Assembly (NCBI GenBank): GCA_965204505.1
Contig: CBDBFB010000002.1
Location: forward strand, 2,370,778-2,434,777
Reading direction: 5' to 3'
Length of the DNA: 64,000 nucleotides
Source: an uncultured Candidatus Binatia bacterium
Lineage (GTDB): Bacteria > Desulfobacterota > Binatia > UBA9968 > JAJDTQ01
The notes beneath the pieces are model-generated. The model had not been told where the DNA came from, ran no database searches, and saw nothing but the letters and a program-made list of their open reading frames with translations. Below, in pieces: positions 625 through 41,653 of the stretch (position 1 is the stretch's first letter; each line of letters starts with the position of its first letter). Made by a program: the position numbers and the translations under genes.

Positions 625-1268
625 GATGCCCGCTCTACCGCCAGGCGCAGATCTACGCCCGCTCGGGTCTCGATCTTCACCGCTCGACGCTGGCCGGGTG
701 GGTGGGCAAGGCGGCGTTCCACCTCAAGCCGGTGGTGGACCGGCTGGCTTGGCGCCTGAGACAGTCGGGGAAGCTGTTCATGGACGAGACCCGGGCTCCG
801 GTGCTCGATCCCGGACGGGGCAGGACCAAGACCGGGTGGCTGTGGGCGCTGGCCCGGGACGACCGCGGTTGGGGCGGCCCGGACCCGCCCGGGGTGGTGT
901 GCTTCCATGCCGCGGCGGCGAGCACGCGGAGACCTTCCTCAAGGGGTTCAAGGGCATCCTGCAGGTGGACGGCTACGGCGGCTACAACCGGCTTGCCGGC
1001 CCGGACCGGCAGGTGCGGCTGGCGTATCTGGATGCACGCCCGGCGCAAGGTTCACGAGGTCTTCGAGAGCACCGACTCGAAGGTGGCGGCCGAGGGCTTG
1101 CCGCGGATCGTGGAGTTCTACGCCATCGAGGCGGAGATCCGCGCCCCCAGGCCCTCACGAGAAAGAACGCCCTGTTCCCGGGTCATGACGAAGGCGCCAC
1201 TGCCTGGGGCCGCATCGCCTCGCTCATCAAGACCGCCAAGTTGAACGGGGCCGAGCCCTACGCCTATT
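625..1268 (+). pseudogene. tnpC: IS66-family TnpC internal fragment (frameshifted), bounded by group II introns on both sides
   Basis: Translations PLYRQAQIYARSGLDLHRSTLAGWVG...KLFMDETRAPVLDPGRGRTKTGWLWALARDDRGWGGPDPPGVV and ...GGEHAETFLKGFKGILQVDGYGGYNRLAGPD lie in different frames. Both match the intact TnpC copies at 9525-11135 and 21598-23208. The fragment ends at ...EPYAYCAR where the intron sequence GTGAAG... begins. Confidence 0.7.
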
Positions 1269-1965
1269 GCGCCAGGTGAAGCCCTGGAGAGGAGGATGCC
1301 ATGAGCTGAAACCTTTCGAAGCGATCCAGCGGGTTCGACTCCCGTCCGGTAAAGGCGCAGCCCGCCAGCCGGAAGCGAGTCTTGCGCGGCGAGCGGCAAC
1401 GCCCGTCGCGAAGCGTAGACAGCAGGTGACGAAGCGGCGGAAAAAAAGCCTCGAAATGGGTAAACCGATGACGCCTTCATTGTTAAGCGGGTGGGGGCAG
1501 TACCGGAAGCGCCGTGACTGGCGAGGCGCAACGGGTCGTCCGGGGTCGTGGACCGGCGCAGAGTCACGGGACGGATCGCCAGGGAACCTGGGAGGTCCTG
1601 CCCTTGCCCGTGGGCAAAGAAGCTGGAGAGGGATGGCCAGCGTGAAATCCAGACCCCGGTCCGTTGCCGGCGCCTGCGCGGCGGCGGGAGCGCCCTCGGG
1701 CGGACACGAACCCCGGCAGGCAACAGCCCGCGGAGCCGGCTGGCGAAAACAATGAGCCGAAGGACATGCAGGGGCAGGAAGTCGTAGCGCCTTGATAGTA
1801 CCGTGGAAGGCGGGGAACCGTGGCCGTCGGGACCCGCTGGAGGGAAGCGGGGCGCCATCTGAACAGACCCACTGATGGGAAACGCTGGAGGAAACCCTGA
1901 GTTCCACCAACACGTACACGAAACAGCAGTGGATAGCCGAACAGGCGAGGGAGCATCCGGAGCGG

Positions 1966-2562
1966 GTGTTCACGTCCCTGCACCACCTGATCGACGGCGA
2001 GTGGATGCGCGAAGCCTACCGGCGGACGCGAAAGGATGGGGCGACGGGCATCGACGGCGTGACGGCTGCGGACTACGAGAAGGACCTTGAGGCCAACCTT
2101 GACGGCCTGCTGGACCGGATCAAGTCGGGCCGTTACTTTGCGCCGCCGGTGCGCCGGCGCTACATCCCCAAGGCGGACGGCACGAAACGGCCTCTGGGCA
2201 TACCGACGCTGGAAGACAAGGTGGCGCAACGGGCCATCCTGATGCTGCTGGAACCGGTCTACGAGACGGACTTTGTGCCGTGCTCGTACGGCTTCCGGCC
2301 CGGGCGGTCGGCCCACGATGCCCTGAACGCACTGCGAAAGGGCATCATGGAGCAGCGCCAACGGTGGGTGATCGACGCGGATCTGAGATCGTACTTCGAC
2401 TCGATCCCGCACGGCCACCTGAGGACCTTCCTCGACCTGCGGATCAAGGACGGCGTCGTAAGGCGCATGATCGACAAATGGCTGAAGGCAGGGGTGCTCG
2501 AAGAGGGCACCGTGCACAAACCGGTTGCTGGCACTCCCCAGGGCGGGGTGATGACGCCCTGA
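1966..2562 (+). pseudogene. Intron X RT N-terminal half (RT domains 0-4), truncated at ...GTPQGGV by the insertion that starts at 2551
   Basis: HHLIDGEWMREAYRRTRKDGATGIDGVTAADYE...RPLGIPTLEDKVAQRAI...SYGFRPGRSAHDAL...VIDADLRSYFDSIPH...TPQGGV is a typical group II RT. The expected ISPLLSN continuation resumes only at 4789. Confidence 0.75.
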
Positions 2563-2576
2563 ACGCAAAAGGTAAC
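2551..2576. repeat. Left terminal inverted repeat of the serine-recombinase element
   Basis: 26/26 nt reverse-complement match to 4763-4788. Two further imperfect matches extend inward. Confidence 0.85.
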
Positions 2577-2659
2577 TTCCGCTTTGAACGTGAGATTGTG
2601 CAATGGCGGGACCGTCCCTTAGTTGATTTACGCCGCAAAGGGTAATACTCTTATGACAA

Positions 2660-2989
2660 ATGGTTCGGTCGACACGAGCCCAAAAGGTCGAGCGGCTCAA
2701 CGCCGCCTACACACTCCTCGCCCAAGGCGTCTCCGCGAGCGAAGCCGTGTTGCGCCTGTCGCAACGCTTCGGGCTGTCGCAGCGCCAGTCGTATCGTTAC
2801 ATCCAGGACGCCCGCGCCATGAGCCAGCCGTCCGAGCCGGGCGAAGCGCTGACCCCCATCACTATCAAGATTCCGGGCACACTGGCGGCGACGCTGCGGG
2901 CGCATGCCAGGAGCAGCGGCCGCTCCATCGCGGAGATCGTCACCCGGGCTCTGAGGCGCTTCTTCTCGCATGCGGGTGGGCATGGCTGA
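2660..2989 (+). CDS. Small DNA-binding protein (N-terminal HTH-like, C-terminal ribbon-helix-helix-like) carried inside the recombinase element. It could be an accessory protein or a recombination directionality factor (RDF)
   Basis: 109-aa ORF. LLAQGVSASEAVLRLSQRFGLSQRQSYRYIQDA is HTH-like. ITIKIPGTLAATLRAHARSSGRSIAEIVTRALRRFF resembles a CopG/RHH beta-strand plus helices. There is no clear Shine-Dalgarno. Confidence 0.4.
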   Translation: MVRSTRAQKVERLNAAYTLLAQGVSASEAVLRLSQRFGLSQRQSYRYIQDARAMSQPSEPGEALTPITIKIPGTLAATLRAHARSSGRSIAEIVTRALRRFFSHAGGHG

Positions 2990-3135
2990 ACGTCGCGCGG
3001 GCTCCCGGCCCTCCGTTCAACTCGCTTATGCCTTTGATCGTCTGCTCGACGCCAAGCTCCAGAACGTCTACGCGATCCTGGTGCCGGATCAGGCTCACAA
3101 GATCCCGGCCCGGGCGCACGATATAGGAGACGAAC

Positions 3136-4899
3136 ATGAGGATCGCAGCCCTGTACGCGCGGGTCTCGGGCGAGCAGCAGAGAGATAGCCACACGATCGC
3201 CAGCCAGACCGAAGCCCTGGTAGCCTACGCCGAGTGTCACGGGTACCGCGTCGCGCCCGACATGATCATCGAGGACGACGGCTACAGCGGCGCCGTTCTC
3301 GAACGCCCGGGACTCGAGCGGGTCCGGGACCTCGCCGCGGAAGGGCGCATCGACACGGTGGTGGTGCATGCCCCGGACCGCTTGAGCCGGCGCTATGCCT
3401 ATCAGGTTGTGATTATCGAGGAGCTGGCGCGCCAGGGCGTCGAGACCGTGTTTGTGAACGCTCCGTCGATGGAAACCCCCGAGGACCACCTCCTCGTGCA
3501 GTTCCAGGGCATGATCGCGGAATATGAACGCGCCCAGATTCTGGAGCGTTCCCGGCGCGGCAAGCGTCATCGGGCGCGACGCGGCGAAGTCGCCGTCCTC
3601 AGCGGCGCGCCCTATGGCTACCGCTACCACAAGAAGACCCCGGACAGCGATGCGTTCTACGAAATCATCGAACCGCAGGCTTCGGTGGTTCGCGAGGTCT
3701 ACCGCTGCTACACTTGCGACCACATGAGCATCGGCGCGATCACGCGCAATCTCAAGGAGCGCGAGGTCCTTACGGCCACGGGGCGTTCGCGCTGGGAACG
3801 CTCGACCGTGTGGGCGATTCTCCGCAACCCCGCCTACAAGGGGACGGCCTGTTTCGGCAAGACCCGCCAGATGCCTCGAAAAAGCGTGACACGTCCTGTA
3901 CGCCTGAGCGGAGGCTTCGCCAGCGCCACTACCGGCAGTCACGAGAAACCGCGTGAGGAGTGGATCGAGATCCCGGTGCCGGCGATCGTCAGCGAGGAGA
4001 CCTTCGCCCTGGCCGAAGAGCGGCTGGAGAGAAACAAGATCCACGCGCCACGTCGCACCAAGACACTCAGCGTGGTCCAGGGACTGGTCTCCTGCGGCAA
4101 ATGCGGCTACGCGTGGTACCGCACCTCGGCCCAGACGAGCGCCCGCAAGATCTCCTATTACCGCTGCCTGGGATCCGATTCGTGGCGCCACCTCAACGGG
4201 CCGCTGTGCGACAGCCGTCCGGCGCGCCAGGAACTGCTTGATGACGTCGTATGGACCGAGGTGGTCCGCCTGCTGGAGAACCCTGCACTGATCAGCGCGG
4301 AAATCGACCGGCGACTGGAGGCGGCCCGTGCCTCCGACCCCAACCAGCAGCGCGAGGCCGACCTGCGGCGCCGGCTGATCAGGGTCCGCAAGAGTATCGA
4401 CCGCCTGGTCAATGCCTATCAGGAGGAGTTGATAACCATCGACGAACTGCGTGACAGAACGCCCGAACTTCGCCGTCAGGAGCAGGCGCTGCATCGCGAA
4501 CTGCAATCCGCGGTCGATCAGGCCAAGGAGCGCGAGACCTACCTGCGGCTCGCCGAGACCCTGACCGACTTTCTGGAGAGGCTGCGTTCGTCCGCCGAAA
4601 CCCTCGACATCGCGGAACGTCAACGCATCGTACGGCTCCTCGTGAAGGAGGTGTTGGTCAGCGAAGACAAAATCACGATCCGCCATTCAATCCCGATCTC
4701 GGGCTCGCCAGGAGGCGGTCCAGACCCCTCGAAATCCGCCACGGACAGCCCCGAAGGCGAAGGTTACCTTTTGCGTTCAGGGCGTCATCTCGCCGATGCT
4801 TTCCAACATCTTCCTGCACCATGTGCTGGACGAGTGGTTCGAGAAAGTGGCGAAGCCACGCTTGTACGGAAAGTGCCAGTTGGTGCGTTTCGCCGATGA
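3136..4899 (+). CDS. Large serine recombinase (resolvase/invertase N-terminal catalytic domain plus large C-terminal recombinase/zinc-ribbon/coiled-coil region)
   Basis: [24 protein letters not shown]...[14 protein letters not shown]...[12 protein letters not shown]...[27 protein letters not shown]...GAPYGYRY... then a Cys-containing zinc-ribbon (CGKCGYAWY...YYRC) and long coiled-coil. The ORF reads through the right IR into flanking RT sequence before stopping at 4899. Confidence 0.85.
4763..4788. repeat. Right terminal inverted repeat of the serine-recombinase element
   Basis: 26/26 nt reverse-complement match to 2551-2576. Confidence 0.85.
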
Positions 4900-4901
4900 C
4901 T
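4789..4901 (+). pseudogene. Intron X RT fragment (domain 5-7 up to the FADD/YADD motif)
   Basis: [38 protein letters not shown], then interrupted by GTGCGCC... (intron Y). Confidence 0.6.
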
Positions 4902-5555
4902 GTGCGCCACGACGGCGACGAGAGGAGGTTCTGATGACGTAGCAGAGCCGAGTTGAAGCGCCTTGCTGCACAGGAGATGAGGGAAGGCCCCTCGGACTCG
5001 GGTTGCAGGACCAGGGTCCAAACCACCGCAAGCTGCTCCGGTTCAACGACCGGGGTGGTGAGCGTTGCGGAAAAGGCGGGAATCACCCGTCAGGTGTGCG
5101 CTGGTAAGACGAACGAAAGTGAACCGTTGATGACGTGTCGAAAGCGTAAAGATGTCGCCGAAACCAGGCTCCAGTCGTTGGTCTGGGATGGAGCTCGGAG
5201 GGTGCCTGCTGACTGGCCGAGCGGCGACCGGCATGAAGGCGGCGTGAGACCAGCGAGAGGCTCTTGTGCGGAACGTGGGAACCTGGAGCTCCGATGCCAA
5301 GGGAGACCTCCAAGCGGAAGAACCGCAAGGAGCCGAGTACCGAAGCGGAGCACAGGGACGGACGGGTCCGTATTAGCGATGAAGCCCGGCAATGCGGGCG
5401 GAGCGAAGGGACCCGACCCTCTGGCCAAGGATGGAGGCCAACCAGAGATGGGAGGAGCCGGTGTCTGAGGCTGGAGGGTAGGAGCCGGATGAGGCGAGAG
5501 TCTCACGTCCGGTTCTGGGAGGGCCGAGGGGTGAAATTCCCCTCGGCTACTCGAC
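4902..5555 (+). mobile_element. ORF-less group II intron Y (654 bp) nested in the RT ORF of intron X directly after FADD
   Basis: Begins GTGCGCC (the same 5' end as intron copies at 35879 and 39668). It contains domain V gagccggatgag-gcgagag-tctcacgtccggttc (5482-5515) and ends ...ggctactcgAC. Excision joins gatgac-t|ttgtcatcgccctcgaa, which encodes FADDFVIALE. Confidence 0.5.
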
Positions 5556-6115
5556 TTGTCATCGCCCTCGAAGACCGCCACAGCGGCAAGCGTCTGCTTG
5601 ACGTGCTGGGCAAGCGTCTCGGTCGATACGGGCTCACGCTCCATGAGACCAAGACGCGCCATGTGGACTTCCGCCGGAGACGCCCATACGGGCGTCACTG
5701 GATGGCGTCGGCCACGACGTTCGATTTCCTCGGCTTCACCCACGTGTGGGGGCGGTCGAGGCAAGGCAAGGACGTCGTTCGCCAGATTACGGCGAAGGGC
5801 CGCTTCGCCCGTGCGCTGAAAGCGGTGCACCAGTGGTGCAAGAGATGCCGGCACCTGCCGGTAAAGGCGCAGCAAGACTATCTTGCACGGGTGATCCGGG
5901 GCCACTGCGCATACTACGGTCTGACGGGGAACGGCAAACGTCTGGAGCGGTTCCGCCAACAGGTCGCCCGCATCTGGCGAACGTGGCTCGCACGCCGCAG
6001 CCGCCTCAGGTGCTTGAACTGGGACCGGATGAACGAACTTCTCAAGCGATATCCCTTGCCGCGAGTCACCTTCATGCGCTCATGGCAACGCTTCCTGAGC
6101 GAACCTGTCAGATGA
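5556..6115 (+). pseudogene. Intron X RT C-terminal part (post-YADD palm/thumb and maturase X domain)
   Basis: LVIALEDRHSGKRLLDVLGKRLGRYGLTLHETKTRHVDF...FDFLGFTHVWGRSRQGK...GHCAYYGLTGNGKRLERF... parallels 57440-58051 and 31380-31902. Confidence 0.65.
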
Positions 6116-6189
6116 GGAACCGAGTGCGTCAATCGCGCACGCTCGGATCTGTGGGGGGAGGGGCTCGGTAACGACCCCTCCTACCCGGC

Positions 6190-6249
6190 CCTCAAGGCGA
6201 CCCTCGAGGCCATCGCCTCGGGCCATCCCGCCTCGCGCATCGACGAACT
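6190..6249 (+). pseudogene. tnpC: IS66 tnpC 3'-terminal fragment
   Basis: LKATLEAIASGHPASRIDEL matches the intact TnpC C-terminus (23110-23180). Homology stops at 6249/6250 where the inverted ORF-less intron begins. Confidence 0.5.
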
Positions 6250-7077
6250 GTCGGGTAGGGCACTGGCGCGCGCACCTTTATTGGGCCACGTTTCCAGCCG
6301 CCCTCCCTAAAATTCCGTACGTCGGGTTTTCCCCGGTACGGCTTCAAGCTTCAGGCACCTCGCAGTTCGGCACGGAGCCTTCCGCAGGGTCGCCGAGGTC
6401 AAGGCCGATCCCGCCATACCCCCGAACGGACGCTGCGTTTGCTCCGCCCTTCGACGATGCCACTCGCCGGTTGATGCGTCGCCTCTGTGTGCGAAACCGC
6501 CGGTTGCAACATCGCCACCTGAGCCCAGAGGCCCTCGCTCCGGCCGGGTTATGTTGTCCCGGCCATCACCGCTTGTCGGCCTCATCCGCCAGTCTGGACG
6601 TCTCCGCCTCATTTCCCGGCACGACCGGTTATAGACGCGGTCTTTGACATTCGAGGATCATCCTGTCTGACCTCCAGACCTTCCGGACTTTCGCTGCGGT
6701 ACTTTCGAGTATTGCCGCCTTCAATACGCCGGGAGCCCCGGTGCGTGCGCCTCAGTTTCTTCCGCACCGGCACTGGCCATCGGGTAGGCAAGAAAACCCT
6801 TGGCAGCTCCAATTTATCCCGCAAATCAGCTTCACGCGGGAACGCCCTTTTCGACGCTTGATCCGTTCACTCTCGTTGCGGCCCTGCTCGTTGCTCGCCT
6901 TCCGGGCTGATCGCACAGGAGCGGCACAAAGGCCTCCCTGTCCCCCGAGGCTTTTACGTCCGGGCTTCCAGATCGCCGGGTCGCCCCGTGCGTCTGCCGG
7001 ATATGACTACGGCGCCAAACTGAGAACTGCGCCGGCGGGACTCTCACCCGCTAGTACCGCAGCTAGTCTCGCTGCGC
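6250..7077 (-). mobile_element. ORF-less group II intron (about 830 bp), a second copy of the element at 56380-57283, inserted near the 3' end of the IS66 remnant
   Basis: The reverse complement aligns over its length with 56380-57283. Shared segments include agtcccgccggcgcaRttctcagtttggcgYcgtagtcatatcc and a domain V gaagccgtaccggggaaaacccgacgtacggaat. Its 3' end ...ccctacccgAC abuts IS66 sequence. IS66 homology resumes at 7078 (cctcccctgggcgttcacacccgc). Confidence 0.5.
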
Positions 7078-7120
7078 CCTCCCCTGGGCGTTCACACCCG
7101 CTTTCCCGCTGATCCCGGGG

Positions 7121-7148
7121 CGCCCGCGGGCGCCCGCGGGCGCCCGCC
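7121..7148. repeat. 10-bp tandem repeat (CGCCCGCGGG), about 2.7 units. The homologous site upstream of paralogue 2 (about 14057-14075) has about 1.7 units
   Basis: Direct reading: cgcccgcggg cgcccgcggg cgcccgccac at copy 1 versus gcgcccgcgggcgcccgccact at copy 2. Confidence 0.6.
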
Positions 7149-7368
7149 ACTCGCCTCATCGCCGTGCCGCCTTCTTTGTCAAGGTGGTTTTTTCGCACCG
7201 TTTACCCCTTTTTTCGCTTCGGGCACGAAAGTAACACTTAAATAGATAATTGGGGCACACTGATGGCACACAAAATATGGATGGATATGGTATGGGGATT
7301 TTGACTTTGGGATTGTCACAAACGCGCGGGACTGCGCTCCGGCGCGCCCGCCGGCGGCGGACAAAGAC

Positions 7369-7383: not shown

Positions 7384-7414
7384 CCCTTGACATTTACGGC
7401 ACTGTCTCATAATC

Positions 7415-7486
7415 GCCCAGCGGCCCAGCGGCCCAGCGGCCCAGCGGCCCAGCGGCCCAGCGGCCCAGCGGCCCAGCGGCCCAGCG
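7415..7486. repeat. Octanucleotide microsatellite (GCCCAGCG)x9
   Basis: Counted directly: nine perfect 8-bp units, followed by ggcagcgacATG. Confidence 0.95.
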
Positions 7487-7495
7487 GGCAGCGAC

Positions 7496-9494
7496 ATGAG
7501 GTGCGCCCGGCGGGAGGCCGGCCCGCCTGACCCGGCCGCCGCCCCTCGAGGGCGCGCACACAAGCTCCTCTCCCCTTCATCCGGACTGACCGGCGGCCGC
7601 CTGGCCGCTCCGGCGGGCTCGCGCCGGGCCGCGTCTCCGTGGCGCCGCCCCGCCCTCCTTCCCGTCCTCGCGCTGGTGCTCGGCGCGCTCGGCCTGTTCG
7701 CGGCTGCGCCCGCCGCGGCGCAGTCCACCATCTGGTCCGCGACGCTGACAGTAGATCAGGACGGCGTGTTATTCGGCTGCGACACCTTCATAGCTGGCCA
7801 CGACAGCTGCACCGTGGGGCTCACGGACGAGGACTTCGTGTACAAGGGTGTGACCTATCGAGTCAATCGGCTATTTGTGAGCTCTACCACTGGGCGGCTG
7901 ACGCTTGAGGTCGACCCGGATGCAGGGTCGAATCTTGCTGGGATGACGTTGCATCTCGGCACTGCGCAGCTAACCGTTGGTGATGATGTCAGAGTATCAT
8001 TCGGCAGAGCTTTAAGCTGGGCCAATTCCGGCGTGACCTGGACCGACAACCAGCAAGTCGCGGTGAGGCTGGTGGCGCCCCCGCCCTCGCTGGGCCGCGC
8101 CGGCAGCATGTCCGTCGACGGGTTCCACCCGATGGGACCCGGACGCATGAAGATCGCCGAGGGCACATCGATCACCTACGGCATCGTGATCCACCAGCCG
8201 CCGACCGCGGATCTGACCATCACGCCGCGACACCACAACGTCCGACCGGACGGCAGCGACTACCCCAACGTCGACAACAGCCTGCTCACGATCCACAACG
8301 CGGTCACCTGGAAAGCCGCCCCGCACCCCAACTACCTGAGCGGGGACTGGCAGCAGGCCAAATCGGTCGGGCTCACCGCGGTGGACGACAACGAGTGCAA
8401 GTCTCCGCCCGGCACCCGGTACTGGATCAGGCACCACGGCAGCGGCGGCGGTCCCGACTGGGGCGGGTGGGACCGGCAGGACCGGCACCATGGCCTGGTG
8501 ATCTCGATCGAAATCATCGACGACGACTGCAAATATCTGGCCGCTTCCCCGGGCCAGGTGTCGCCGGAGGAGGGCGGCAGCGCGACCTACACCGTCCGCC
8601 TGAAGACGCCGCTCGAGGACGCCGCGTACATTTCCCCGCGCATCAGCGTCCCCGGCGACAGCGACCCCGGCGCGGTCACGGTCTCTCCCGAGCGGATCCG
8701 GGTCGAAGCGGGAGACACGAGCCCGAAGACGTTCACGGTCAGCGCCGGAAGGGACGCGAACTCCCGTAACGAGGTCCTGGTTGTCGACCACAGCGTCGAC
8801 TCGCCGGAGGTCCCGGCGGATTACCTGGGCGGCCGGGTGACCGTCATTGTCCAGGACGAACAGAACGCGGCGAGGACGCACGAGCGCGACGCGCTGAGCG
8901 TGACCGGTCTTGCGCTCACGGCCGGTTCGGAGGCGGTGGCGCTGGTTCCGGCCTTCTCGCCGGGGGTGAAGTCCTACCGGGCGGAGGTCCCGGCGGGGAC
9001 GGCGGGCGTGACGCTGGCGCCGCACTGGAGCGGCGGGGCGAGCGTGCACGCGGGCTCGCGCCGGGGCGGGACGACCTTCACGCGCCCGGCGCGGGTGCGG
9101 CCCTCGGGCACGGCGGTCGCGCTGGCGCTGGCGCCGGACGGCGGCGCGACCGAGCTGTGGGTGATGGCGAGCGGCGGTTCGAGCGGCATGACGACCTACC
9201 GCATCGAGGTGACCGAGGCGCAGGCGCAGGCGCCCGAGGAACAGACCCCGCCGGAAGAAGAGGCCCAGACCGTGGCGGTGGCGTTCGGCAAGGTCCCGCC
9301 GGAGCATGACGGGCGGACGGCGTTCGCGCTGGACGTGCAGTCGGGCTCGAAGCCCGCTGCCGACGCGTTCAAGGTGACGGCCGGGAAGGTGACGGGCGTG
9401 GAGCCGCTGGACCCGGTGCTGTGGCGGGTGCGCGTCAAGCCGGAGTCCTGGAAGGACGTGAAGGTTGCGCTCGGCGCGGCGTCGGCGAAGGTCC
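7496..9494 (+). pseudogene. Autotransporter-like adhesin paralogue 1, N-terminal part (signal peptide plus passenger), interrupted by IS66
   Basis: ...RRPALLPVLALVLGALGLFAAAPAAAQS is a signal-peptide-like stretch. The passenger region follows. The ORF ends where IS66 right end gtaagcgttgccgc begins. The C-terminal half continues at 12118 in frame with paralogue 2. Confidence 0.7.
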
Positions 9495-30072: not shown

Positions 30073-32054
<1,982 letters not shown>

Positions 32055-35878: not shown

Positions 35879-37864
35879 GTGCGCCGTGCAAGGCGCCATC
35901 CCTTAGCGGGTTGCGAGACCCGCCCGGCAACTGTCGCTCCAGCCGGTAGCAGTCGGAGCGGACGATGGAGGTAACGACATGGTTTGAAGCACTCCGATGA
36001 AACGGGCCGCCTTGGGCGGCTCAGCGACCATGCGGGCCGCAACGCGAGTGAACGCCGAGCAGGCCTCGAAACTGGCAACGCGGAAGCCGACCCGCCTCGA
36101 GTACGGGAAAGGCTGCCATCGGCCGGGAAGCGAGCGACACACGCACCGGCCGGTTCCGCCGGGGTATTGGCGGCGGCACGCATGGAAGAAGGGGATGGAC
36201 GCAACACGGGAAGCCCCGGCGGTGGCGTAGCACGCGCCAACCGACAACCCGCGAGGGATGGGTCGGGCCGTTCGGGGTGGCGGAGAGGTCCGTAGTACCG
36301 CGGAAGCCGGGTAATGCCGGTGGAGGGAAGGGGCCTTGGTTCGAGAGCAGCGTTTGGAAGGAGGAAGGGACATGGGGACTGGCGAGAGCCTATCCGACCC
36401 GGAAAAGGTCCGGAGACTCCAGACGGCGCTACATGCGAAAGCGAAGGAGGCCCCGGGCTTTCGGTTCTACTCACTGAGCGACAAGGTGTGGCGCGCCGAC
36501 GTGATGGCGGTCGCCTGGCAGGAGGTCCGCCGCAATGGCGGAGCCGCCGGGGTGGACGGTCAGACGGTAGCGGACATCGAGGCGCAAGGCGTGGAGCGGT
36601 GGCTTGGGGAACTGAGGCGGGACCTGAAGGCGGGAACCTATCGGCCCGAGGCGGTCCGGCAGGTTCTCATACCAAAGAAGCAGCGTGGGAAGTTGCGGCC
36701 CCTGGGCATTCCCTGCATACGGGACAGGGTGGCGCAGACGGCGGCGATGCTAGTGCTGTCGCCGATCTTCGAGGCCGACCTGCAACCGGAACAGTATGCC
36801 TACAGGCTGGGCCGGAGCGCGAATGATGCTGTCAGGCGCGTACACCGGCTGTTGAACACGGGCCACCGCGAGGTGGTGGACGCGGATCTAACGGACTACT
36901 TCGGCCAGATTCCGCACGCCGAACTGCTCAAGTCCGTCGCCCGGCGCGTGAGCGACGGGCGGATGCTGGGCTGGGTTAAGGCGTGGCTTGAGATGGCGGT
37001 CGAAGAAGACGACGGCAAGGGCGGCAAACGCCGTACGAACCGGGCGCGTCGCGAGAGGAAGGGAACCCCTCAAGGTTCTCCGATCTCCCCGTTGCTCTCC
37101 AACATCTACATGCGCCGCTTCATACTGGGCTGGAAGGTGCTGGGCCATGCCCGGCGCTTCAAGGCGGAAGTCGTCAACTATGCCGACGACCTGGTTGTGC
37201 TCGGCAAATCGTCGTCAGCGGAAATGCTGGCGGTGGTCGAGAACCTGATGGAACGGCTGAAACTGACGGTCAATGCCGAGAAGACCCGATGCTGCCGGGC
37301 GCCGGAGGACTCGTTTGAGTTCCTTGGCTATCGGATTGGACGCAACTACCGCCCGCACGGGAAGGGGAGCTACATCGGCACCCGGCCCAGCAAGGCGAGC
37401 GTCCAGAGCATCTGCCGCAGGATTAGCGAACTAACGGAACCCCGCTATGGGCTCCTGGACCAGGAGGTCGTGGCCGAACGGCTCAATCGACTGATGCTCG
37501 GGTGGTCAAAGTACTTCATCCTGGGCCAGGTCGAGCCGGCCTATGCCGCGATCGACAGGCACGCTATCAAGCGGCTGCTCCAGTGGCGGCGTCGCAAGCA
37601 CAAGGTGAGAGCCCGTAATTATGTGCAATACGGGTACGAGCAGCTCTGGACTGAGCACGGTCTCATCCGCCTTGCACCGCGAGCGACACGCTTTCCGTGG
37701 GCGAAGGCATGATCTCGTCCGAGAGCCGTGTGCGGGAAAACCGCACGCACGGTTCGATGAGCGGGGACTGGAAACGCGGCCAAGGGAGCCGGACTGAGGC
37801 CCGGAGCGAAAGCGACGGACAAGCCACCGGACCCTAAAGCTGGCGCGCCAGTCCTCGACTCTAC
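35879..37864 (+). mobile_element. Group II intron (copy 2, 1986 bp) inserted antisense in the relaxase gene
   Basis: 5' GTGCGCCGTGCAAGG and 3' ...cctcgactctAC. Identical to 39668-41653. Confidence 0.75.
36372..37712 (+). CDS. Group II intron reverse transcriptase/maturase
   Basis: 446 aa from MGTGESLSDPEKVRRLQTALHAKAKEAP. YADD present. About 75-80% identical to the 30562-31902 protein. Confidence 0.85.
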   Translation: MGTGESLSDPEKVRRLQTALHAKAKEAPGFRFYSLSDKVWRADVMAVAWQEVRRNGGAAGVDGQTVADIEAQGVERWLGELRRDLKAGTYRPEAVRQVLIPKKQRGKLRPLGIPCIRDRVAQTAAMLVLSPIFEADLQPEQYAYRLGRSANDAVRRVHRLLNTGHREVVDADLTDYFGQIPHAELLKSVARRVSDGRMLGWVKAWLEMAVEEDDGKGGKRRTNRARRERKGTPQGSPISPLLSNIYMRRFILGWKVLGHARRFKAEVVNYADDLVVLGKSSSAEMLAVVENLMERLKLTVNAEKTRCCRAPEDSFEFLGYRIGRNYRPHGKGSYIGTRPSKASVQSICRRISELTEPRYGLLDQEVVAERLNRLMLGWSKYFILGQVEPAYAAIDRHAIKRLLQWRRRKHKVRARNYVQYGYEQLWTEHGLIRLAPRATRFPWAKA

Positions 37865-39667: not shown

Positions 39668-41653
39668 GTGCGCCGTGCAAGGCGCCATCCCTTAGCGGGT
39701 TGCGAGACCCGCCCGGCAACTGTCGCTCCAGCCGGTAGCAGTCGGAGCGGACGATGGAGGTAACGACATGGTTTGAAGCACTCCGATGAAACGGGCCGCC
39801 TTGGGCGGCTCAGCGACCATGCGGGCCGCAACGCGAGTGAACGCCGAGCAGGCCTCGAAACTGGCAACGCGGAAGCCGACCCGCCTCGAGTACGGGAAAG
39901 GCTGCCATCGGCCGGGAAGCGAGCGACACACGCACCGGCCGGTTCCGCCGGGGTATTGGCGGCGGCACGCATGGAAGAAGGGGATGGACGCAACACGGGA
40001 AGCCCCGGCGGTGGCGTAGCACGCGCCAACCGACAACCCGCGAGGGATGGGTCGGGCCGTTCGGGGTGGCGGAGAGGTCCGTAGTACCGCGGAAGCCGGG
40101 TAATGCCGGTGGAGGGAAGGGGCCTTGGTTCGAGAGCAGCGTTTGGAAGGAGGAAGGGACATGGGGACTGGCGAGAGCCTATCCGACCCGGAAAAGGTCC
40201 GGAGACTCCAGACGGCGCTACATGCGAAAGCGAAGGAGGCCCCGGGCTTTCGGTTCTACTCACTGAGCGACAAGGTGTGGCGCGCCGACGTGATGGCGGT
40301 CGCCTGGCAGGAGGTCCGCCGCAATGGCGGAGCCGCCGGGGTGGACGGTCAGACGGTAGCGGACATCGAGGCGCAAGGCGTGGAGCGGTGGCTTGGGGAA
40401 CTGAGGCGGGACCTGAAGGCGGGAACCTATCGGCCCGAGGCGGTCCGGCAGGTTCTCATACCAAAGAAGCAGCGTGGGAAGTTGCGGCCCCTGGGCATTC
40501 CCTGCATACGGGACAGGGTGGCGCAGACGGCGGCGATGCTAGTGCTGTCGCCGATCTTCGAGGCCGACCTGCAACCGGAACAGTATGCCTACAGGCTGGG
40601 CCGGAGCGCGAATGATGCTGTCAGGCGCGTACACCGGCTGTTGAACACGGGCCACCGCGAGGTGGTGGACGCGGATCTAACGGACTACTTCGGCCAGATT
40701 CCGCACGCCGAACTGCTCAAGTCCGTCGCCCGGCGCGTGAGCGACGGGCGGATGCTGGGCTGGGTTAAGGCGTGGCTTGAGATGGCGGTCGAAGAAGACG
40801 ACGGCAAGGGCGGCAAACGCCGTACGAACCGGGCGCGTCGCGAGAGGAAGGGAACCCCTCAAGGTTCTCCGATCTCCCCGTTGCTCTCCAACATCTACAT
40901 GCGCCGCTTCATACTGGGCTGGAAGGTGCTGGGCCATGCCCGGCGCTTCAAGGCGGAAGTCGTCAACTATGCCGACGACCTGGTTGTGCTCGGCAAATCG
41001 TCGTCAGCGGAAATGCTGGCGGTGGTCGAGAACCTGATGGAACGGCTGAAACTGACGGTCAATGCCGAGAAGACCCGATGCTGCCGGGCGCCGGAGGACT
41101 CGTTTGAGTTCCTTGGCTATCGGATTGGACGCAACTACCGCCCGCACGGGAAGGGGAGCTACATCGGCACCCGGCCCAGCAAGGCGAGCGTCCAGAGCAT
41201 CTGCCGCAGGATTAGCGAACTAACGGAACCCCGCTATGGGCTCCTGGACCAGGAGGTCGTGGCCGAACGGCTCAATCGACTGATGCTCGGGTGGTCAAAG
41301 TACTTCATCCTGGGCCAGGTCGAGCCGGCCTATGCCGCGATCGACAGGCACGCTATCAAGCGGCTGCTCCAGTGGCGGCGTCGCAAGCACAAGGTGAGAG
41401 CCCGTAATTATGTGCAATACGGGTACGAGCAGCTCTGGACTGAGCACGGTCTCATCCGCCTTGCACCGCGAGCGACACGCTTTCCGTGGGCGAAGGCATG
41501 ATCTCGTCCGAGAGCCGTGTGCGGGAAAACCGCACGCACGGTTCGATGAGCGGGGACTGGAAACGCGGCCAAGGGAGCCGGACTGAGGCCCGGAGCGAAA
41601 GCGACGGACAAGCCACCGGACCCTAAAGCTGGCGCGCCAGTCCTCGACTCTAC
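39668..41653 (+). mobile_element. Group II intron (copy 3, 1986 bp) inserted antisense in the relaxase gene
   Basis: Sequence identical to copy 2. Flanks are ccctttcga| and |aatagctgg. Confidence 0.75.
40161..41501 (+). CDS. Group II intron reverse transcriptase/maturase
   Basis: Identical to 36372-37712. Confidence 0.85.
   Translation: MGTGESLSDPEKVRRLQTALHAKAKEAPGFRFYSLSDKVWRADVMAVAWQEVRRNGGAAGVDGQTVADIEAQGVERWLGELRRDLKAGTYRPEAVRQVLIPKKQRGKLRPLGIPCIRDRVAQTAAMLVLSPIFEADLQPEQYAYRLGRSANDAVRRVHRLLNTGHREVVDADLTDYFGQIPHAELLKSVARRVSDGRMLGWVKAWLEMAVEEDDGKGGKRRTNRARRERKGTPQGSPISPLLSNIYMRRFILGWKVLGHARRFKAEVVNYADDLVVLGKSSSAEMLAVVENLMERLKLTVNAEKTRCCRAPEDSFEFLGYRIGRNYRPHGKGSYIGTRPSKASVQSICRRISELTEPRYGLLDQEVVAERLNRLMLGWSKYFILGQVEPAYAAIDRHAIKRLLQWRRRKHKVRARNYVQYGYEQLWTEHGLIRLAPRATRFPWAKA

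Follow-up and report, generated by a model that had tools for sequence, protein, structure and literature searches.

How does a group II intron that encodes no protein come to lie at the catalytic motif of another intron's reverse transcriptase (RT) gene? The question is raised by a 64,000-nucleotide stretch of contig CBDBFB010000002.1 from an uncultured Candidatus Binatia bacterium (hereafter, the window), in which an inner element that we name intron C interrupts the RT open reading frame (ORF) of a larger group II intron, outer intron 1 (Table 1). Our preferred reading, to which we assign a probability of roughly 0.85, is that C is a class D ribozyme that has lost its intron-encoded protein (IEP) and has retrohomed into the RT gene of an unrelated intron. 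C offers a clean natural case of a protein-less group II intron in such a position, and its empty site, its deletion junction and both of its guide pairings can be read directly.

The ends of C conform to the group II rule (GUGYG/AY): it opens with the heptamer GTGCGCC at 4902 (GUGCG, 4902-4906) and closes with ...CTACTCGAC at 5555 (CGAC, 5552-5555). The 5' junction (4901/4902) reads CGT TTC GCC GAT GAC T/GTGCGCCACGACGG and the 3' junction (5555/5556) reads GGCTACTCGAC/TTGTCATCGCC, where, here and below, a slash within a sequence marks a junction or insertion point. An initial annotation of the window had drawn attention to the GTGCGCC start; the heptamer is indeed present at 4902, but with 15 occurrences on the + strand of a window this rich in GC it carries no significance on its own. 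The case rests instead on covariance-model matches, the fold and the empty site. Two Rfam models match within C above their gathering scores: RF01999 (group-II-D1D4-2) at 4979-5095 (112.6 bits, E 2e-22) and RF00029 (domains V/VI) at 5480-5555 (60.3 bits). At minimum free energy (MFE), the 654 nt of C fold into exactly six top-level domains (z = -5.96 versus shuffled sequence), and domain V displays an AGC triad, a CG bulge and a GAGA loop (GAGCCGGAUGAGGC-GAGA-GUCUCA(CG)UCCGGUUC).

The fold of domains I to III (D1-D3) was assessed by covariation. A degenerate domain V pattern was scanned over 185,579 representative genomes, which yielded 62 loci; 22 of these provided distinct D1-D3 segments that could be aligned with the window. 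C's own D1-D3 fold was then projected onto the resulting alignment (n = 23, including the window), with pairing partners slid by 1-3 columns, and 500 shuffles, as controls. Standard pairs fill 89.6% of cells, versus 35-44% in the slid controls; 109 of the 155 pairs exhibit both-sided changes, and the observed values were reached by 0/500 shuffles. Helices 22-27, in D2-D3, are 76-100% paired and contain many compensatory changes. The only helices that lack covariation support are the variable 5' stem and the region of exon-binding site 1 (EBS1), the latter stretch being expected to be single-stranded. Across D1-D3, C is 70-79% identical to its relatives. The Rfam matches, six-domain fold and covariation confirm the prediction, made in the initial annotation, of a complete ORF-less group II intron at 4902-5555; its coordinates for domain V (5482-5515) were also right, and the folding into domains I-III that it had set as a check is observed. 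Separately, a 171-aa ORF at 4953-5468 was rejected as a real gene: it matches no Pfam family and shows no conservation, and relatives have comparable stop-free stretches of varying length.

An intact copy of outer intron 1, found through an RT homolog (locus L065), matches the window at 93.7% identity over 2033 nt, and this alignment sets the boundaries of outer intron 1 at 1268 and 6190. The L065 sequence at the site of C, CAGTTGGTGCGTTTCGCCGATGACTTTGTCATCGCCCTCGAAGACCGCCAC, is identical at the DNA level to the window sequence minus 4902-5555. The insertion of C is therefore exact to the base and without target duplication, which fits the expectation for reverse splicing. C lies on the same strand as the outer RT ORF, one nucleotide past the FADD codons, and its excision restores the reading frame through FADDFVI to the stop at 6115 (joined outer-exon sequence ...GATGACT-TTGTCATC); the nesting after FADD and the in-frame removal had both been recognized initially. 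When the three pieces of the RT ORF are joined, they yield a 419-aa protein with a single continuous RVT_1 match. Intact homologs of the same length, up to 94% identical to this rebuilt protein, can be aligned with it without a single gap, also over PQGGVISPML and LVRFADDFVIALEDRHSG.

Outer intron 1 is itself matched by RF02005 at 1336-1555 (126 bits) and, weakly, by RF00029 at 6115-6189 (35 bits). Its first base is a T (TTGCGCC, versus GTGCGCC in a second outer intron of the window, outer intron 2); we ruled out decay as the explanation because the intact L065 also begins with TTGCGCC, which is evidently a trait of the outer intron 1 family. The frequency of GTGCGCC alone might have invited the view that 4902-5555 is no insertion at all, but either outer-intron sequence that was rearranged or duplicated, or a similarity that arose by chance. 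That view is already refuted by the empty site in L065, by the many intact 419-aa RT homologs, by the different Rfam D1 families of the inner (RF01999) and outer (RF02005) introns and by the family-wide covariation, and we accord it a negligible probability. We regard the predicted twintron formed by C and outer intron 1, with C as a true insertion, as confirmed by these comparisons. The initial annotation had allowed that the segment might be a fragment left by internal deletion; it is not a piece of outer intron 1, but C does itself derive from a longer parent by internal deletion, as described below.

The site occupied by C is matched by its own guide sequences (Table 1). Intron-binding site 1 (IBS1) comprises the final seven bases of the 5' exon, and throughout the alignment the pairing between EBS1 and exon is preserved by covariation in relatives that have other targets, for example CGUGGUU/GACCACG in L040, AUUGUAU/GUACAAU in L063 and AGUACGU/GCGUACU in L043. 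The position of EBS2 was assigned by comparing L005, the inner intron of L056 (L056in), L032, L040 and L063. Another candidate for EBS2, CGGCGA (intron 321-326, opposite UCGCCG), was rejected: it is conserved across relatives that have different exons, and does not covary. The EBS2 guide of C would fit ...T TAC GCC GAT GAC T perfectly, that is, the YADD-type target CGTTACGCCGATGACT/TT. Four other (Y/F)ADD sites in the window (31381, 37191, 40980 and 57452) are empty; each would pair with C's guides at 6/7 and 5/6 positions, and each is unlike the occupied site at position -1, where it carries a C or a G.

Table 1. Coordinates of intron C, its host intron and associated features in the window
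Feature	Coordinates	Strand	Remarks
Inner ORF-less group II intron C	4902..5555	+	654 nt; putative class D / RmInt1-like ribozyme
Domain I of C	4907..5278	+	MFE fold; D1-D3 covariation
Domain II of C	5279..5359	+	MFE fold
Domain III of C	5363..5415	+	MFE fold
Domain IV of C	5416..5479	+	64 nt, no IEP ORF; MFE fold
Domain V of C	5481..5516	+	limits in MFE fold (34-nt domain V = 5482-5515); RF00029
Domain VI of C	5519..5552	+	bulged branch A 5549, 7 nt before 3' end; RF00029; MFE fold
EBS1 (AGUCGUU)	5173..5179	+	7/7 pairing with IBS1 GAUGACU; covaries in relatives
EBS2 (GCGUAA)	5144..5149	+	intron 243-248; 5/6 pairing with IBS2 UUUCGC
5'-exon homing site	4888..4901	+	IBS2 4888-4893, IBS1 4895-4901; codes (R)FADD plus one nucleotide
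Outer group II intron 1	1268..6190	+	2033 nt minus two insertions; in IS66-family transposase pseudogene; L065 end-to-end match
Outer intron 1 RT ORF, piece 1	1966..2552	+	ends at PQGGV
Outer intron 1 RT ORF, piece 2	4789..4901	+	ISPMLSNIF...LVRFADD plus T
Outer intron 1 RT ORF, piece 3	5556..6115	+	FVIALEDRHSG... to stop; 91% identical to L057
Serine-recombinase DNA element	2553..4788	+	2236 bp; inverted ends of about 36-42 nt; interrupts outer intron 1 RT motif 4

To which lineage does C belong? A neighbour-joining tree built from D1-D3 unites C with L056in and L005; the sister of this group is L063, a free-standing ORF-less relative within a repeat element, and L032 falls in another clade. 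The IEP of L056in shows 56% identity to one that is encoded by a plasmid of Sinorhizobium meliloti GR4, the original host strain of the intron RmInt1. A blastn search matched 111 Sinorhizobium plasmid records. The IEPs of C's clade measure 418-421 aa (418 in L056in and 421 in L005), and those of L005 and L056in are without an endonuclease domain. Class D IEPs that lack this domain are about 419 aa long and carry the C-terminal motif LX3AX3PXLF[V/A]HW (PMC4615759), which is exact in L056in (LGRIARREPNLFAHW) and present as variants in L005 (LGGIARRDPHLLALW) and in an IEP remnant at L057 (LGCIARRDPNLFVLW). We infer that C, which has no IEP and is placed through its ribozyme homology (71-74% over the aligned D1-D3 region), is an RmInt1-like class D (IIB-type) ribozyme. 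RmInt1 is itself a bacterial class D (IIB3) intron of S. meliloti (PMC4615759, PMC5894124). It and its relatives resemble C's clade, in which full-length members are about 1.88 kb and the endonuclease-less IEPs, of 418-421 aa, carry the class D motif in exact (L056in) or variant form; insertion in IS66 transposase genes, the situation of Sr.md.I1, is likewise seen in other members of the wider family that were recovered here. RmInt1 differs in its target, ISRm2011-2, which is not an RT gene, and C differs in having no IEP.

The loss of that IEP has left a legible scar. Domain IV of C retains a Shine-Dalgarno sequence (GGAGGAG), a GTG start (5461-5463) and two further codons (GTG TCT GAG), after which it runs straight into the 3' base of domain IV (GCTGGAGGGTA). 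We placed the junction by aligning the part of C that precedes it to L005, L056in and L063, and the part that follows it to L057: it falls at a GAGGC microhomology (5467-5471) and can be written either as GTGTCTGAG/GCTGGAGGG or as GGTGTCTGAG/GCTGGAGGGTA. The 5' deletion partner in relatives is GTGTCYGAGGCAAAGCC, and the 3' partner in L057 is CCGACCGGAGGCTGGAGGGTA; about 1.2 kb of the IEP gene was removed between the two GAGGC pentamers. Across D1-D3, C shows 70-75% identity to introns of about 1.88 kb that carry an ORF of about 1.25 kb in domain IV (L005, 2917-4793; L056, 5447-7332). By this alignment, C descends through an internal deletion from a class D intron of 1.9 kb that contained an ORF.

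On our preferred reading, C was guided by EBS1 and EBS2 to (R)F/YADD-coding bases and reverse-spliced (retrohomed) there, one base past the second Asp codon, in the sense strand of an RT gene that belongs to an unrelated group II intron. About 1.2 kb of the IEP ORF would have been lost either through RT template switching during cDNA synthesis or through a later DNA deletion, and C would now depend upon a cognate class D IEP in trans for its splicing or movement. No such cognate IEP is visible in the 64-kb window.

When might the ORF have been lost? We lean, by a modest degree, towards loss at or after the insertion of an ORF-containing parent. The other possibility is that C was already ORF-less on arrival, a non-autonomous mini-intron that owed its splicing and retrohoming to a class D IEP from another locus of the genome, in the manner of the TeI3/TeI4 introns of Thermosynechococcus. 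The good EBS/IBS pairing at the site and a well-preserved ribozyme with compensatory changes of its own would both suit such an arrival, and trans mobilisation has an experimental precedent in Thermosynechococcus (PMC2882425). Free-standing ORF-less relatives also occupy other sites: L063/L064, L040/L031, and plasmid copies in Rhizobium leguminosarum, Methylomonas and Methylosinus, with independent deletion junctions. The search for free-standing copies that the initial annotation had proposed thus does recover ORF-less relatives, although none has C's own junction: no second copy of it was found in the 185,579 representative genomes or in JGI metagenomes, and a JGI metagenome scan for ORF-less forms returned only L063/L064, which belong to another lineage and have another junction. 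Standing with this singleton junction against an ORF-less arrival are the ORF-containing state of the other YADD-site clade members L005 and L056in, the related outer intron in L057, whose own inner intron occupies this site and has IEP sequence, and the lack of a cognate IEP within the window. We consider arrival in an ORF-less state to be a real contender, but the less probable of the two.

Several observations weigh against the history that we prefer, in which an ORF-containing class D parent retrohomed to this site. The free-standing ORF-less relatives make trans mobilisation of ORF-less class D forms plausible. C differs from the inner intron of L057 at 1/90 positions, with 4/77 differences in domains V and VI of the outer introns, so that the inner domains V-VI are the less diverged; the contrast, though not significant, is a hint that the two insertions were separate and recent, and as a means of dating the insertion we rejected it since the difference is too small to decide. 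C deviates from the family consensus at 13/210 highly conserved columns, versus 0-9 in most relatives; several of these departures form compensatory pairs, so the ribozyme is not obviously dead. The EBS2/IBS2 pairing contains one mismatch, which arises because a T makes the outer RT FADD rather than YADD. The sole class D IEP visible in the window, that of a neighboring intron A, is 44-46% identical to the clade IEPs, and at that identity intron A is a doubtful trans-acting donor. Lastly, both the splicing of C and its past movement are predicted from its sequence.

Introns of the family are found at the same RT codon position in four other loci (L005, L056, L032 and L057). In L005, from a metagenome-assembled genome (MAG) of Polyangiaceae, the interrupted RT, which belongs to quite another family, is split as RYADD/CNVYVRSKRAGERV by an ORF-containing relative. 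In L056, from a Ca. Multivoradales MAG, the sequence AGA TAT GCG GAC GAT A/GTGCGCC marks an ORF-containing inner intron within another class D-type intron, and in L032, from an alphaproteobacterial MAG, VVRYADD is followed by A/GTGTGCC. L057, from a deltaproteobacterial MAG, has an outer intron 91% identical to outer intron 1 and an identical 3' exon; the 3' base of domain IV and domains V-VI of its inner intron are 98.9% identical to those of C, and an IEP C-terminus lies upstream of its domain V with no deletion junction. As a separate matter, L057 is chimeric at 715-1082, where a 5' domain I of the outer intron 2 type leads into a C-type IEP C-terminus with domains V-VI and then into the 3' part of an RT of the outer intron 1 type, which suggests a deletion or recombination inside a nest. 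At L056 (4213-7978 of contig CBDFNS010000019.1), the intron at 5447-7332 is apparently nested at the YADD site of an intron of the same class; the outer intron starts at 4213, with its domain V near 7904, and the same MAG also holds ORF-less copies of the outer type (L009, L028 and L039).

Most of the other family members recovered by the scan sit in transposase genes, for instance at the IS66 PLYRQ site or at IS3-like or rve sites. The lineage as a whole appears to target other mobile DNA, and C's clade the YADD codons of RT genes. The initial annotation had presented C as an ORF-less intron parasitising the RT gene of an ORF-containing one; the arrangement is real, but ORF-containing relatives occupy the same site elsewhere, and the "parasitism" is for that reason a property of the lineage rather than of ORF-less introns. 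Because relatives occupy the YADD+1 position in other, unrelated RT genes, the clade probably homes to YADD-coding sequence; since the YADD motif is the most conserved in any RT gene, targets would exist in every genome that has other group II introns. That C, L005, L056in and the inner intron of L057 form a clade specialised for the YADD codons of other introns' RT genes, across RT classes and phyla, is a stronger proposition that we advance tentatively, at somewhat less than even odds. If it is true, the specialism would make these introns "parasites of parasites" that exploit the single sequence an RT is unable to alter, and L032 would represent use of the same YADD site from another clade. 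Clade-wide homing to YADD, if confirmed, would also explain how targets are found in any genome that already holds retroelements. Being ready-made and highly conserved, the YADD-coding site would also suit experiments on retargeting or mobility. For annotation, the lesson is that RT-based intron finders miss both partners of such nests.

Homing specificity for YADD codons across unrelated RT families is what may be new here. Our literature searches found no statement of such specificity, although Dai & Zimmerly (2003) and Simon et al. (2008) may cover it. ORF-less introns within the RT ORFs of other introns are already described, and the initial annotation's view of the arrangement as rarely documented was overstated, given precedents in Thermosynechococcus (PMC2882425) and Methanosarcina (a title cited in PMC4424553). 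In T. elongatus, ORF-less TeI3a-e lie in the RT ORF of TeI4a-e, and the TeI4 IEPs mobilise the TeI3 introns, trans mobilisation being proven in that genus (Mohr, Ghanem & Lambowitz 2010, PMC2882425). C and the Te introns have in common a domain IV deletion of about 1.2-1.5 kb that leaves N- and C-terminal remnants, placement on the sense strand of an RT ORF, good EBS/IBS pairing and dependence (predicted, for C) on an IEP in trans. They differ in class: the Te introns are of CL/IIB1 type and their inner and outer members are close relatives, whereas C groups with class D and outer intron 1 belongs to a different Rfam D1 family. The Te insertion falls between the first two ATGs, so that RT could be made from the second; C lies at the catalytic YADD motif, and no outer RT is therefore possible without splicing. 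There are 17 ORF-less Te copies with one shared deletion junction, in contrast to a single known copy with C's junction. The usual bacterial situation is an ORF-less intron accompanied by a related IEP-encoding intron in the same genome (PMC4424553).

For the archaeal nested introns of Methanosarcina acetivorans, the title of the report describes ORF-less and RT-encoding introns that home into the ORFs of related introns (Dai & Zimmerly 2003, cited in PMC4424553); our comparison with C extends to that title and to the summary in PMC4424553. Archaeal group II introns stem from the CL, D and E lineages (PMC4424553), and if the Methanosarcina homing site should prove to be YADD codons, the site specificity of C's clade would already be known.

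Could C and outer intron 1 instead work as a regulatory twintron, in which inner splicing gates the expression of the outer RT and hence its mobility? C lies in the sense strand and in frame, its splicing would restore FADDFVI exactly, and sequential splicing of a bacterial twintron is known in Trichodesmium (PMC4649490). Against this, the same RT ORF is also broken by an unspliceable 2236-bp DNA element, the region is a heap of nested insertions in an IS66 transposase pseudogene, and bacterial twintrons are mostly located outside housekeeping genes and have no known host effect (PMC4424553); we judge a regulatory role to be very improbable. The initial annotation had proposed that splicing of C would be needed to express the outer RT: such splicing is necessary, but it is not sufficient, bearing in mind the DNA element. 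The twintron of Trichodesmium erythraeum (Pfreundt & Hess 2015, PMC4649490) resembles C as an intron within an intron whose inner member is removed first (as it would be for C); it differs in having a host context and in that its sequential splicing has been demonstrated, whereas C is known from sequence and outer intron 1 is broken at the DNA level as well.

The DNA element cuts the outer RT between GTG AT and C TCG (PQGGV/ISP), and the corresponding empty site in L065 reads GGGGTGATCTCGCC. It carries a ribbon-helix-helix (RHH) ORF (2660-2989) and, from 3136, a large serine recombinase (Pfam Resolvase, Recombinase and Zn_ribbon_recom). Because this element also splits the RT and is not removable by RNA splicing, this copy of outer intron 1 is presumably dead regardless of C. 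Copies of the element in L066 and L067 (3418-5653 in each) are 96.5% identical over exactly 2236 bp. The L066 copy occupies the same motif-4 position (TPQGSV/VSPVLANVYL) in the opposite orientation, in an RT that resembles that of outer intron 2; L068 holds a copy with no RT gene called alongside. Joining the two ends of the element produces a perfect palindrome, GGCGTCATGACGCC. The recombinase ORF of the window copy has no stop of its own, and its homologs range from 553 to 829 aa in length. The element may be specialised for group II RT genes; if so, and if C's clade is indeed specialised for YADD codons, both would belong to a community of secondary mobile elements that is dedicated to intron RT genes and sustained by them.

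The frameshifted IS66-family transposase pseudogene that surrounds outer intron 1 (1-627, 628-1267, 6191-6250 and the region of about 7077-7250) hosts three intron insertions: intron A, which ends at 627, outer intron 1, and an antisense ORF-less-like element. Intron A is class D-like and lies at the PLYRQ site that many relatives use in other genomes. The antisense element (about 6251-7076, - strand) is precisely inserted in the transposase (IDEL/LPWAF); some 820 bp of it are 75% identical to an insert at 56381-57288, and its RF02003 match (48.8 bits) falls just below the gathering score.

That insert belongs to outer intron 2 (55279-58108; RF02005, 184 bits), whose RT ORF is split (RVT_1 profile positions 1-106 and 103-204), so that the locus looks like a second nested arrangement. 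The insert itself (about 56381-57288, some 908 bp) starts with GTGCAGCG and ends with ...CCUACCCGAC; it has an RF02003 domain I match of 54.8 bits, and no domain V was recognised in it by Rfam at E<1. Elsewhere in the window, two near-identical group II introns of about 2 kb (35879-37864 and 39668-41653) have the same Rfam scores and a 458-aa RT ORF each, and a third, related intron of about 2 kb lies at about 30074-32054; all three RT ORFs are intact. The RF00029 matches of these three introns are 144 nt long, and domain VI must accordingly contain a long insertion. Finally, a tandem octamer, GCCCAGCG, is repeated in about 10 copies at 7407-7495, a short distance 5' of an ORF of 682 aa that includes a cadherin-like domain.

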